Shown here in pieces: positions 8,308 through 12,060 of a DNA stretch of 37,949 nt; within the stretch, counting starts at the first letter, position 1, and each line of letters begins with the position of its first letter. The DNA lies in the IMG/VR virus record IMGVR_UViG_3300032214_000615, one strand, 5' to 3'. The DNA comes from a virus. Taxonomy: Duplodnaviria; Heunggongvirae; Uroviricota; Caudoviricetes. The position numbers and the translations under genes are program-made. Below the pieces are notes generated by a model. It did no database searches. It saw only the letters and a program-made list of their open reading frames with translations, and was not told where the DNA came from.

Positions 8308-8315
8308 TATTTAGC
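8308..8315 (-). promoter_or_regulatory. Late promoter (GCTAAATA) for portal
   Basis: Overlaps the upstream stop codon, 20 nt before the portal ATG. Confidence 0.5.
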
Positions 8316-10947
8316 TCATAGTATGAGTTAGTAGATTTCCTTGAATGCGTTTGCTAGCCATCAGTGTTTCATTTACATTACTGACATGTTGATTATTGAC
8401 TTTGGATTCTTGTATTAGCTCCAACAATCTAGCATTGGTTGCTTCTTGTTGTCGTTTAAGCTCAGCTATTGATTCTTTGAATGTGTTTGCCAAATTTTGA
8501 ATTTCAAAGTTATCCAAATTCCCAACATTTGAATAACGTTGATTTTTAATCTCAACCGGTATTGTTCTGCCGTCTGGTAGTGGTACTACTGCCTCTGGAC
8601 CACGTTCGCCTGCTATTGATATGCCGCGTGTTATGCCGCCTTTTGCCATCATTTCTGCGTGAAAATGTGGGCCGGTCCAGTTCGGAGATTTTTTAAAGTA
8701 TTCTTCACGATTTTTTCCAGTAAATCCCATATCTCCTAATAGTTTTACTATCTCGTCGGCTTCTTTTTCAGTTTTAGGCGCAGGATCAAGAGTGAAGTCA
8801 ACTGCTTTTCCTTTAAGATGCTTGCTATCACTATCACGCTTAGCTAAATCATTAAAGGCTGTTATTCTAGTTCCAGGAAATTGTTTAGCAAATTCTTTTA
8901 TTTTTGCTAGCAACATTTCATCAGTGTCGGCTCCGCCTTTTGTGGTTCCTCCGTATACTTCCGTGGATTTTATATTTAATCCTTCATATTTTCCAGTTCC
9001 GGGAATATATTCTTTACCTACTGTGGCAGGTGAACTGTTTGGGTTAGTCTGTCCAATACCAGATGCTTTTACAGTGCTAAGAGTTTGAGTTTTTTCTAAA
9101 TCTGTTCTATTAGTTTTTATATCGTTTTGAACTCTGGCTAATTCAGATTCTGCTTTTGTTAACTCGATGTTCGCGTGTTTTAGTCTGGTCTCAGCGGCTG
9201 ACACAGCCTGCGCCGTACCTGGCGTCAGGTTTTTCTCTTCTTTGCGGCTTTCTTGATGTAAGGCGTTGATTTGACTCTCAAGTTTTTGAATTATTTCTTT
9301 ATCGTGTTCTGAATCTAGCGATTTTTTTTCTTTATTTAGCGTTTCTATCTCTGATTCAAGCGTTTTTATACGTTTCACGCTTTGTTCTTCTTCTTCTTTT
9401 GTCGGTATTCTTCTTAAATCTTTAACTGTTTGTTGTTCTTTGTCTCTTGTTGTCTTTGCTTTCTTTAATTTTTCTTTAGCTTCTACCTCTTCTTTCATTG
9501 AGTCTATCAATTGTTTTTTAAGTTTTATTTCTTTAGGAACTTCTTGTCCGGCGAACTCAAACATCTTAGTAAGTACAGTGTATGTCCCGTCTGCTAATTT
9601 GTCCATTGCCCACGTGGCGGTTTTACTACTTACCATAAACTTTTCTATTTCTACTCCTAGATCGTATAATCGCTGTTTAGTGTTTGCCAATTCTGCGTTT
9701 TGTCCAGTAGTGGATTCCAAAGTCTCTTTTCGTTTTTTTAAAATAGCATCCATTTCTTGTGGGGTTATTTCTTTACGATTAACTAGATTTCTTAATTCAG
9801 CGTAAGATTTCGTGTATAGAGAAGCGTCACCCACGTGTTGCGCTAGCTGTCCCATTGGTCCTATCACAGTGCCGGCAGCTTTTTTAATTTCGTTGAATCC
9901 GTCAATAGCACCCAATGTGCCGTTTCTAATTCGTTGAACTATTTCTACGCCCATACCCCCAGTTTGTTGAACAAACTGTTTGGCAGCATCCGTACTAACA
10001 CTGCCGCTCATCATATCGCGCAAACCCTGTGCTATAGACTCGGCGCCGGCTGATTTTAAGACTACGTTTAAATCGTTCGCTGATTTTTGAACGTGCTCAG
10101 GCAATTGAGCCATGGCGGCGGCAAATCTAGTTTCACTCATTGCCTGATCGCGCATTGTTTGAATGTCTTTTTTCTGTAATCCAGTTAATTTAGTAAGAGT
10201 GTCTAATTCTTCAATGTAAGTTTTGGTGCCATCGCGCAGGTCTTTAGTATTTTTATTTCCAATCAACCCCCATTTTTGCTGCTGTGAGATATAAGTTAAT
10301 TGAAGATCGTTGAAATCGCCTACTGATATGCCCAACTTTTGAAAATCGTCTCTAATTCCTCTGGATGAAACTGCTACTAGTTCAAAGTCTTTACGACCGG
10401 ATATTACAGAACCGCCATACGCACCTAGTTCTTTGCTAAATTTTGCCAGCACTTTTCCAGTGTCTGTAACATTCATTCCAGTTTTACTAATTGAAGATTC
10501 TAAATCTTCAAATTGCTGTAATACACCCGTATCTGCTAGTTGTTCAAAAATTCCATAGGTTTTGTCAAACGTTTTTATTAACTCAAGAGCTATATCGCCG
10601 CCGGCGTTAATAATACCCTGAGCTACACCACTTAACGGTCCTAATAATGAAGCAAATCCGGAAAGAGTTTTAGTTGCTAATCCTACAACCGTATTTAAAG
10701 ATGAAAAACTTCCAGCTCCAGATGTCAATTGAGAGCTAAATGCTAAAGCACTATTTCCCAATCTTTGTAGTGATGCGGCAGTTTTTTCGTGTCGTGCTTT
10801 ATTTGCTTCGTCTAATTTCTTAGACTGTCCAATAGAAGAGTCAATCGCACCCCTAACACTGTTGCCACTTTCACGCGCAGCGGTTCCAAGTGTACGTAAG
10901 CCATCAACGATAGCTTCAATGTCTTGCGGATCTAAATTTTGAGCCAT
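8311..10947 (-). CDS. Tape-measure-like tail protein with C-terminal Zn peptidase (M15/LAS-type) domain
   Basis: Long Ala/Gly-rich helical N-terminus and coiled coil; SKHLKGKAVD (Hx6D) and PHFH (HxH); AKGG...IAGERGPEAVVPL motif common at the end of tape measures. Confidence 0.75.
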   Translation of the reverse strand: MAQNLDPQDIEAIVDGLRTLGTAARESGNSVRGAIDSSIGQSKKLDEANKARHEKTAASLQRLGNSALAFSSQLTSGAGSFSSLNTVVGLATKTLSGFASLLGPLSGVAQGIINAGGDIALELIKTFDKTYGIFEQLADTGVLQQFEDLESSISKTGMNVTDTGKVLAKFSKELGAYGGSVISGRKDFELVAVSSRGIRDDFQKLGISVGDFNDLQLTYISQQQKWGLIGNKNTKDLRDGTKTYIEELDTLTKLTGLQKKDIQTMRDQAMSETRFAAAMAQLPEHVQKSANDLNVVLKSAGAESIAQGLRDMMSGSVSTDAAKQFVQQTGGMGVEIVQRIRNGTLGAIDGFNEIKKAAGTVIGPMGQLAQHVGDASLYTKSYAELRNLVNRKEITPQEMDAILKKRKETLESTTGQNAELANTKQRLYDLGVEIEKFMVSSKTATWAMDKLADGTYTVLTKMFEFAGQEVPKEIKLKKQLIDSMKEEVEAKEKLKKAKTTRDKEQQTVKDLRRIPTKEEEEQSVKRIKTLESEIETLNKEKKSLDSEHDKEIIQKLESQINALHQESRKEEKNLTPGTAQAVSAAETRLKHANIELTKAESELARVQNDIKTNRTDLEKTQTLSTVKASGIGQTNPNSSPATVGKEYIPGTGKYEGLNIKSTEVYGGTTKGGADTDEMLLAKIKEFAKQFPGTRITAFNDLAKRDSDSKHLKGKAVDFTLDPAPKTEKEADEIVKLLGDMGFTGKNREEYFKKSPNWTGPHFHAEMMAKGGITRGISIAGERGPEAVVPLPDGRTIPVEIKNQRYSNVGNLDNFEIQNLANTFKESIAELKRQQEATNARLLELIQESKVNNQHVSNVNETLMASKRIQGNLLTHTMS

Positions 10948-11011: not shown

Positions 11012-11836
11012 ATGAGCAACAACCCACTTCAACAATATTTTCGTAGACCCGCAATTTACATCAAACTTCCAAGTCTTGGTAGATACTACGATGATACAGT
11101 GATTGAACGAACAGAAACAGATGAGCTTCCTGTTTACCCAATGACTACCATAGACGAAATCACTAGTAAAACTCCAGACGCAGTTTTTAATGGACACGCG
11201 GTAGTAGATATTATTCATAGCTGTGTTCCAAATATTAAAAACGCCTGGAAAATCAACACCATTGACTTAGACGCTATTATAGTAGCCATAAAGGTAGCCA
11301 GTAACGGAGAAAAAATGGAAATAGAGTCGGTTTGCCCTAGCTGCGAAACTGACGCTACGTATGATATCAATCTGATAAGCGTACTTAGTCAGCAAAAAAA
11401 TGTTGACTATGAGCGCACATTGAATTTAAGAGAACTGGAAATAAAATTTAAACCTATAACATACGCAGAAGCAAATAAAAATGGTATGGCTCAGTATGAG
11501 TTACAGAAATTTTTACAGGATCTACAACAAGCCGAAGAATCGGAAGAAAAACAAAATATGATTCGTGAAACCGTTGCTAAACTAAATGAAAAATTTTCCG
11601 AAATAGTAGGCGGAACCGTTGAGTATATTAAAACGCCAGACTGTACCGTTTATGAAGCCGAGTTCATAAAAGAGTTTTTAACTAAGTGCGACCGAAATAC
11701 AAGCACCGCAATTAGAGAACACAGTGTGCGATTAAAAAACGAAAATCAATTAAAGCCCTTAAAAATCAAATGTATGAATTGTTCACACGAATACGAACAA
11801 CAATTAGTACTGAATATCAGTGATTTTTTCGGTTAA
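11012..11836 (+). CDS. gp26: Baseplate hub / tail assembly chaperone (T4 gp26-like)
   Basis: NPLQQYFRRPAIYIKLPS N-terminus, YPMT, CPSC and CMNC motifs, ends in DFFG. Confidence 0.85.
   Translation: MSNNPLQQYFRRPAIYIKLPSLGRYYDDTVIERTETDELPVYPMTTIDEITSKTPDAVFNGHAVVDIIHSCVPNIKNAWKINTIDLDAIIVAIKVASNGEKMEIESVCPSCETDATYDINLISVLSQQKNVDYERTLNLRELEIKFKPITYAEANKNGMAQYELQKFLQDLQQAEESEEKQNMIRETVAKLNEKFSEIVGGTVEYIKTPDCTVYEAEFIKEFLTKCDRNTSTAIREHSVRLKNENQLKPLKIKCMNCSHEYEQQLVLNISDFFG
11824..11830 (+). promoter_or_regulatory. Putative -1 ribosomal slippery heptamer T TTT TTC
   Basis: In-frame X XXY YYZ two codons before the gp26 stop. The -1 frame is open from here to 12060 and closed by TGA (11821-11823) immediately upstream. 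Confidence 0.65.
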
Positions 11837-11862
11837 AGCTTCTTCATTTAGACCACGATCAA

Positions 11863-12060
11863 ATGAAGAAGCTGGGTGAGCAAATGTGGAATGATGCCAC
11901 TAGTCTCAAGGCTCTATCAATGAAGTTAGCTTGGTACACTCGTGGTTCAATGAGCTACGCAGATGTTCTTAACTTAAGCAAAGAAGAGATGGATCAGTTG
12001 AATAAACTAATAGACCAAAACTTAGAAACTACTAAGAAAACTAAGTTGCCTTTTTTCTAA
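11863..12060 (+). CDS. gp51-like baseplate hub assembly protein; possibly expressed as a frameshift extension of gp26
   Basis: KLAWYTRGSMSYADVLNLSKEE...LPFF; directly follows gp26 in the -1 frame; no clear SD before ATG 11863. Confidence 0.65.
   Translation: MKKLGEQMWNDATSLKALSMKLAWYTRGSMSYADVLNLSKEEMDQLNKLIDQNLETTKKTKLPFF

Follow-up and report, generated by a model that had tools for sequence, protein, structure and literature searches.

A gene of the T4 gp26/gp51 baseplate-hub assembly family, carried by the uncultured virus recorded as IMGVR_UViG_3300032214_000615, very probably contains a programmed -1 frameshift that would allow it to encode both a short and a long protein. The record is a 101.7-kilobase (kb) fragment, and we analyzed a stretch of 37,949 nucleotides (nt) that lies within it, hereafter the window. 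The gp26-like open reading frame (ORF) is on the plus strand at positions 11012-11836, and its zero-frame product, the short form, has 274 amino acids (aa). This protein matches Pfam PF12322, T4_baseplate (E 8e-16; 58.8 bits against a cut-off of 24.5), reaching position 218 of the 219 in the profile, as well as PHROG 150, 'baseplate hub' (E 3e-16), and these matches place it in the T4 gp26/gp51 family. It contains two Cys-x2-Cys pairs, CPSC and CMNC; in alignment A3, four cysteines are invariant.

The 3' end of the ORF reads AGT GAT TTT TTC GGT TAA and contains a slippery heptamer, T_TTT_TTC, in the X_XXY_YYZ phase (11824-11830, plus strand). It is followed by a 6-nt spacer, GGTTAA (11831-11836, plus strand), that includes the zero-frame TAA at 11834-11836; other subgroups of relatives likewise have spacers of 5-6 nt. 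In the -1 frame, a TGA (11821-11823) stands directly 5' of the heptamer, and from the heptamer onward the frame is open for 78 codons (FFRLKLLHLDHDQMKK...LPFF) to a TAA at 12058-12060. A slip at the heptamer would leave 76 codons to be read before this stop. The resulting -1 extension (11830-12060, plus strand) is supported by peptide conservation, codon-position entropy, a fold model and natural fusions, and the predicted products have 274 and 349 aa (273 + 76). The layout of this junction and the sizes of its products had been put forward in an earlier note on the same DNA (the original prediction), and the sequence bears them out. A second in-phase T_TTT_TTC lies near the extension's own end (CCT TTT TTC TAA, window 12050-12060). 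This copy looks like a chance occurrence, because the homologous Pro-Phe-Phe uses all codon combinations.

We compared the junction with those of 80 uncultured relatives (30-75% identity) and ten cultured jumbo phages: Atu_ph07, Phosso, PA5oct, RaK2, 121Q, XacN1, CBB, Vibrio 2.275.O, Xoo-sp13 and Munch. A blastn search with the junction against cultured phages returned no match, and the relatives were found by protein-level search. All 91 jumbo-type loci, representing 69 distinct junctions with 24-75% protein identity, have an in-phase heptamer, T_TTT_TT[C/T], that stands 1-11 codons 5' of the zero-frame stop. Each complete locus has a -1 frame that is open for 72-90 codons and a +1 frame that is soon closed. 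The codon 5' of the run is NNT in every jumbo-type junction, though nine amino acids are encoded there. Based on the amino acids and the codon usage of each gene, the heptamer would be expected in only about 6.5 of the 69 junctions; it was observed in all 69. As a control, we used the C-terminal PFF* of the extension, which is equally conserved and has free codons (TTC TTC, TTC TTT or TTT TTT for Phe-Phe and CCA, CCT, CCC or CCG for Pro). Judged by this expectation, the invariance of the third base in NNT and the choice of TTT-TTC cannot be explained by protein constraint. The heptamer in the Xanthomonas phages XacN1 and Xoo-sp13 is T_TTT_TTT, a run of seven T's. In these two phages the zero frame runs 10 codons further and the -1 peptide starts FFYSAIK and not FFR.RL; no other version of the signal that we saw diverged as far.

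The signal is equally constant among cyanophage-type junctions, where 76 of 76 distinct examples have the heptamer in phase and serine is encoded only by AGT or TCT. The 63-aa protein annotated as 'gp51' in cyanophage S-SSM7 is encoded by the -1 ORF that follows GAT TTT TTC GCC TAA at the end of gp26. Aeromonas phage Aeh1 has GAT TTT TTC GAC TGA followed by an unannotated 60-codon -1 ORF without a nearby ATG. Both ORFs match PHROG 634 (E 2e-26 for S-SSM7 and 2e-14 for Aeh1). Cyanophage 'gp51' (for example SSSM7_011 of S-SSM7; PHROG 634) resembles the window extension in its place, its -1 phase and the invariant heptamer at the end of gp26. It differs in being shorter and in having been annotated as an independent gene of 57-68 aa with a start Met 5 codons past the heptamer. 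The heptamer and its -1 phase, which the original prediction proposed to look for in homologous junctions, are kept without exception. Together with the features of the extension and of the RNA described below, this makes the comparative evidence for a programmed -1 frameshift very strong.

The extension has the properties of coding sequence. Its alignment (A2, 44 sequences) is nearly gap-free and conserved from residue 1 (FFR.RL ... W[YF]MRGG ... ETTKK.G.PFF), and column entropy follows the order position 3 > position 1 > position 2 by codons 4-13, that is, 5' of the window's first ATG. AlphaFold modeled the window extension with a predicted local distance difference test score (pLDDT) of 87.8 and helices at residues 2-7, 11-38, 45-49 and 53-73. 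Among 1.84 billion representative proteins, 471 matched a profile built from the extension at E <= 1e-3. The window extension itself matched no family in Pfam or PHROG, as might be anticipated if it were non-coding, or a decaying remnant, and its -1 frame were open by chance. This explanation is effectively refuted by the 471 matching proteins, a frame that is open in every complete locus, the confident fold and the coding-type substitutions.

Some phages carry the extension as part of a continuous protein. Among the best 150 of the 471 profile matches are about 20 proteins of 319-351 aa with the extension at the C-terminus. These natural fusions share a PF12322/PHROG-150 body, 21-39% mutual identity and a junction of the form ...D-x4-F-R-x-x-L.... 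The DNA of one case, from a metagenome contig (L118), is a continuous ORF that reads GAT TTT TGT AAT CTC TTT CGT and has no run of six T's. When the conceptual slip products of the window and 16 relatives were aligned with 14 fusions, no gap interrupted the stretch that starts at the second Cys pair, crosses the F|R junction and enters the extension. Reading of both Phe codons prior to the shift would produce exactly this register. The fusion was modeled as one body (pLDDT 90.5; predicted template-modeling score, pTM, 0.86), and its helices at 269-296, 303-307 and 311-331 match the model of the window extension residue for residue (offset 258). A Foldseek search of BFVD with a related fusion model gave 67 matches at E <= 1e-3, every one of them named T4-like baseplate hub, gp26 or gp51. 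Directly upstream of the fusion gene, L118 has a tandem paralogue (E 5e-10) that lacks the extension. By its gene content, this phage has arrived independently at a pair of genes much like 26 and 51 of T4. The two paralogues occupy L118:51-2051 (Ga0316221_1017412); the first lacks both the first Cys pair and the extension, and the second has the extension fused. A related-locus search in viral contigs (query P0025) returned further frameshift-type marine loci and no fusions.

Several observations weigh against a frameshift. The heptamer alone is common in the AT-rich window, with 28 copies of TTTTTTC where 15.7 are expected, so its significance rests on conservation across relatives. Part of that conservation is protein-driven, since even the T4 gp26 protein retains the Phe-Phe (KEFFELL). 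Among the GenBank/RefSeq records of the compared phages, no joined coding sequence is annotated across both ORFs. The window extension contains in-frame ATG codons at 11863 and 11884, the latter after GGGTGAG, and a free peptide of 58-65 aa could also be made from it. An ATG lies 3-5 codons past the heptamer in Atu_ph07, Phosso, 121Q and most cyanophages, and a separate small ORF is annotated there. Finally, the phiW-14-like Pseudomonas phage Cygsa01 (L094:1072-1982) has one PF12322 gene without the heptamer (AGC ATT TTC ACC TAA TG), and its small gp51 is a separate 57-aa gene that overlaps the gp26 stop by TAATG. Cygsa01 represents a third arrangement, in which the extension may be made as a free peptide, and its separate small gene indicates that fusion is not obligatory. 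The ATG at 11884, the small ORFs annotated in relatives, the Cygsa01 arrangement and the conserved Phe-Phe would suit two separate genes, in which initiation at ATG 11863 or 11884, or termination-reinitiation, would yield a free 58-65-aa 'gp51' and the heptamer would be a by-product of Phe-Phe and AT-rich codons. We looked for a conserved independent start of the downstream ORF, a possibility that the original prediction had raised for ATG 11884, and found none; neither ATG 11863 nor ATG 11884 is conserved. Among jumbo-type junctions the first -1-frame ATG shifts from codon 3 to codon 38 or is absent, as in PA5oct, and 23 junctions have no ATG ahead of the Met codon within the W-Y-M-R-G-G motif. 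The annotators' start Met at codon 5 is lacking in 16 of the 76 cyanophage junctions. Despite this variable start, conservation of both the peptide and the codon-position pattern begins at the heptamer. Moreover, two separate genes account poorly for a heptamer that protein constraint would place in 6.5 of 69 junctions when the PFF* control varies freely, and for natural in-frame fusions that are collinear with the slip product. We therefore judge two separate genes improbable and prefer a programmed frameshift. The -1 ORF of Pseudomonas phage PA5oct (L083:2331-2555) is 75 codons long, has no ATG, GTG or TTG throughout and is not annotated in the record.

Folding of the RNA 3' of the heptamer revealed a probable frameshift-stimulating hairpin in the window, which the original prediction did not include. 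It spans 11837-11873 on the plus strand and has a perfect stem of 13 base pairs (bp; 11837-11849 / 11861-11873; arms AGCUUCUUCAUUU/AAAUGAAGAAGCU) and an 11-nt loop. The hairpin starts 6 nt 3' of the heptamer, inside the 5-9 nt range expected of a stimulator for tandem slippage, and 62 nt fold at -18.7 kcal/mol (z = -3.3). Over all 69 junctions, the 80 nt after the heptamer have a mean z of -2.1 and a median first paired base at +6. A stem begins at about this distance in nearly every subgroup. Across the window and four further subgroups the 5' arm keeps a fixed place (+6/+7), and the sequences and loop sizes are unrelated. In a second subgroup the arms are GGCUUUUGAC/GUCAAAAGCC. A third has the stem GCCUAAYWR/YWRUUAGGC, with 10 bp, a 28-nt loop and two pairs that show compensatory changes, and a subgroup without a visible local hairpin has a long-range pairing, CGCCUCCUG/CAGGAGGCG. 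Differing 3' arms that lie at differing codons of the extension, combined with a fixed distance to the stem, are as predicted by selection for a frameshift stimulator. Based on this pattern, the window hairpin probably stimulates frameshifting.

The constant position of the stem also bears on whether the ribosome or the RNA polymerase would slip. Stuttering of RNA polymerase on the six T's could add one U in some transcripts, so that ordinary translation would enter the extension. Products of the same lengths as those of ribosomal slippage would result, and the homopolymer at the junction, which reaches T7 in XacN1 and Xoo-sp13, suits such a mechanism. Known bacterial transcriptional slippage uses runs of about 9 or more, however, and six T's are short for efficient transcriptional slippage. 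The invariant X_XXY_YYZ phase, a fixed C or T at position 7 and a stem at a constant 6 nt are hallmarks of tandem slippage by the ribosome, and polymerase stutter requires none of the three. We consider it very unlikely that the extension is reached in this way.

Taking together the conserved signal, the evidence that the extension is coding and the in-frame fusions, we infer that slippage occurs, and two-way decoding of the gp26-like gene is in our view a highly probable explanation of the data as a whole. In the proposed mechanism, most ribosomes would stop at TAA 11834 and release the 274-aa short form. A minor fraction would shift to the -1 frame with tRNA-Phe on UUU in the P site and on UUC in the A site of U_UUU_UUC. 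Both tRNAs would re-pair one base back, with the ribosome probably paused by the 13-bp hairpin 6 nt 3'. Translation would then resume at CGG (Arg), the first of 76 further codons, and yield a minor long form of 349 aa whose C-terminal domain has four helices. T4 gp26 would be the counterpart of the short form and gp51 that of the long form. More tentatively, the body common to both forms could serve as an escort for the hub or for the tape measure, the analogue of gp29, and the added helical domain could dock this body to the hub or tube initiator as it forms.

The genes around the gp26-like ORF encode a major head protein, a prohead protease, a gp20-type portal, gp46/47, gp55 and a gp5-like hub protein, a gene set that is that of a T4-related giant phage. 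T4 gp26 (208 aa) and gp51 (249 aa) have been described as 'hub assembly chaperones', and gp51 is needed for assembly and is missing from the particle (Leiman et al. 2010, PMC3004832, Table 2). We found that residues 1-201 of T4 gp51 match PF12322 (E 4e-52), that a C-terminal extension follows them, and that the protein spans PHROG 150 end to end, with its C-terminus falling in PHROG 634, 'baseplate hub assembly catalyst'. Direct alignment of T4 gp26 and gp51 gave an E of 2e-6. This homology, together with the gp51 extension, indicates that T4 has a short and a long paralogue. The T4 proteins and the window protein have PF12322/PHROG 150 and the two Cys-x2-Cys pairs in common, and in the long forms of both the C-terminal helical extension begins at the same ...F|[RK].L junction. 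The extension is 76 residues long in the window compared to about 50 in T4 gp51. The arrangements differ, however. T4 gene 26 ends GAG TTC TTT GAG TTA CTA TAA, without a heptamer, and is followed by gene 25; gene 51 is separate and divergent from 26. In the window, one gene and a -1 slip would give both forms. Consistent with this difference, T4 and the RB49-like KFS-EC, both without the heptamer, have two PF12322 genes each, whereas the heptamer-bearing RaK2, PA5oct, Atu_ph07, S-SSM7, Aeh1, 121Q and XacN1 have one each. The whole 101.7-kb record likewise holds a single PF12322 gene. The fusion of gp26 to the gp51-like ORF in the original prediction is supported for the relatives that keep the signal and does not extend to T4 itself, which has two paralogous genes and no frameshift.

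How closely the extensions themselves are related varies between groups. When families were compared by hhalign, the cyanophage extension matched residues 200-251 of T4 gp51 with a probability of 96.5% (E 9e-10), and the cyanophage FFRL junction aligned with VFKLL of T4 gp51. The similarity of the window-type to the cyanophage extension was weak (E 0.005). The alignment of the window-type extension with the T4 gp51 C-terminus was collinear but not significant (probability 3-7%). Single-sequence hhalign of the extension profile with T4 gp51, S-SSM7 and Aeh1 was uninformative. We regard the window-type extension and the C-terminus of T4 gp51 as likely homologues. The label 'gp51-like' that had been given to the extension is upheld by position and by the cyanophage link to T4 gp51, and for window-type homology the sequence comparison is suggestive only. 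T4 gp26 (L091:3806-4429) also has a weak PHROG match to the gp28 family (phrog_1140, 'baseplate hub distal subunit', E 9e-4), which hints that the small hub proteins are more distantly related among themselves.

A -1 frameshift that yields a short and a long tail-assembly protein is of a kind already known. What appears to be new here is the frameshift in the gp26/gp51 family, its equivalence to the two genes of T4 and its breadth. A full-text literature search, with subscription-only literature outside its scope, found no paper that reports a gp26/gp51 frameshift. We also looked for the gp26-like protein in virion data. Its record in PA5oct has no mass-spectrometry note and its neighbor's record has one. 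RefSeq calls the protein of Pectobacterium phage CBB (L087) a 'structural protein', and the mass-spectrometry table of the CBB paper includes CBB_247 and CBB_251 and not 249 and 250. The virion proteomics papers for CBB and phAPEC6 left the presence of the gp26-like protein in particles undecided. If two-way decoding is correct, an essential locus for tail assembly is wrongly annotated in hundreds of T4-related genomes, including those of the ecologically dominant cyanomyoviruses and of RaK2/PA5oct-type jumbo phages of therapy research. Such records show a 'gp26' accompanied either by a small orphan ORF or by a 'gp51' whose start is arbitrary. In most relatives, recoding would then fix the ratio of short to long form, a task that falls to two promoters or genes in T4. 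The tail-chaperone frameshift of lambda-, P2- and Mu-like tails would then reach the T4 superfamily via an unrelated protein family, which would be either deep convergence or a clue to a common logic of tape-measure handling.

The neighbor of the gp26-like gene is compatible with a logic like that of G/GT and does not prove it. The divergent gene at 8311-10947 (minus strand) encodes an 878-aa protein with an M15-peptidase-like part. In the ESM Atlas, 17 of its 30 nearest named clusters were tape-measure families (score 0.92), with M15/VanY-like structure rows spanning about residues 650-780, and the syntenic RaK2 protein is annotated as tape-measure-like. The same divergent gene order is found in RaK2, PA5oct, 121Q, CBB and Munch. 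Searches of Pfam and PHROG with the 878-aa protein gave no match, with Peptidase_M15_3 reaching only E 0.098, and neither BLASTP against RaK2 ORF088 nor a Pfam search with its halves gave anything significant. Guided by the Atlas and by RaK2, we regard the product as probably the tape measure, a lead only, and it may be one with an embedded cell-wall peptidase. The original prediction had placed the gp26/gp51 pair next to a divergent tape measure; adjacency and divergence stand, and the identity of the tape measure is probable.

A conserved -1 frameshift in the tail assembly chaperone genes of long-tailed phages, exemplified by lambda gpG/gpGT, was reportedly described by Xu, Hendrix and Duda in 2004, and E/E' of P2 is a myovirus example. 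That gp26 and the gp26-51 trans-frame product serve a G/GT-type chaperone role is possible, and we give it somewhat less than an even chance. Gene order speaks against such a role. The gp26-like gene adjoins the probable tape measure but is divergent from it instead of upstream on the same strand, and no tube gene is adjacent; the lambda gene sits between the tube and tape-measure genes. Homology to G/GT-type tail chaperones was not found, with no match to a Pfam family and no relative in the PDB by sequence. Searches for a tail-chaperone fold by Foldseek and VIA-align gave generic helical matches only (Z <= 8.2). The match to the G/GT frameshift that had been claimed for the window extends to the short/long arrangement predicted from a -1 slip and not to gene order, and no similarity of sequence or fold was found. 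A broader proposal, which we hold just as tentatively, combines a G/GT counterpart role with a one-gene frameshift as the ancestral state and T4 26/51 as a later duplication that resolved the frameshift. As part of this proposal, the ancestral state would span jumbo RaK2-like phages, cyanomyoviruses and Aeh1. If this broader proposal is true, the textbook 'except T4' would drop from the rule of tail-chaperone frameshifting in long-tailed phages. The heptamers differ, U_UUU_UUC in the window and G_GGA_AAG in lambda. Nonetheless, the T4 members of the gp26/gp51 family resemble G/GT in being assembly factors and not established virion parts. As in lambda G/GT, slippage into the -1 frame shortly before a gene for tail morphogenesis ends would produce a short and a C-terminally extended protein, with a probable tape measure encoded by the adjacent gene.

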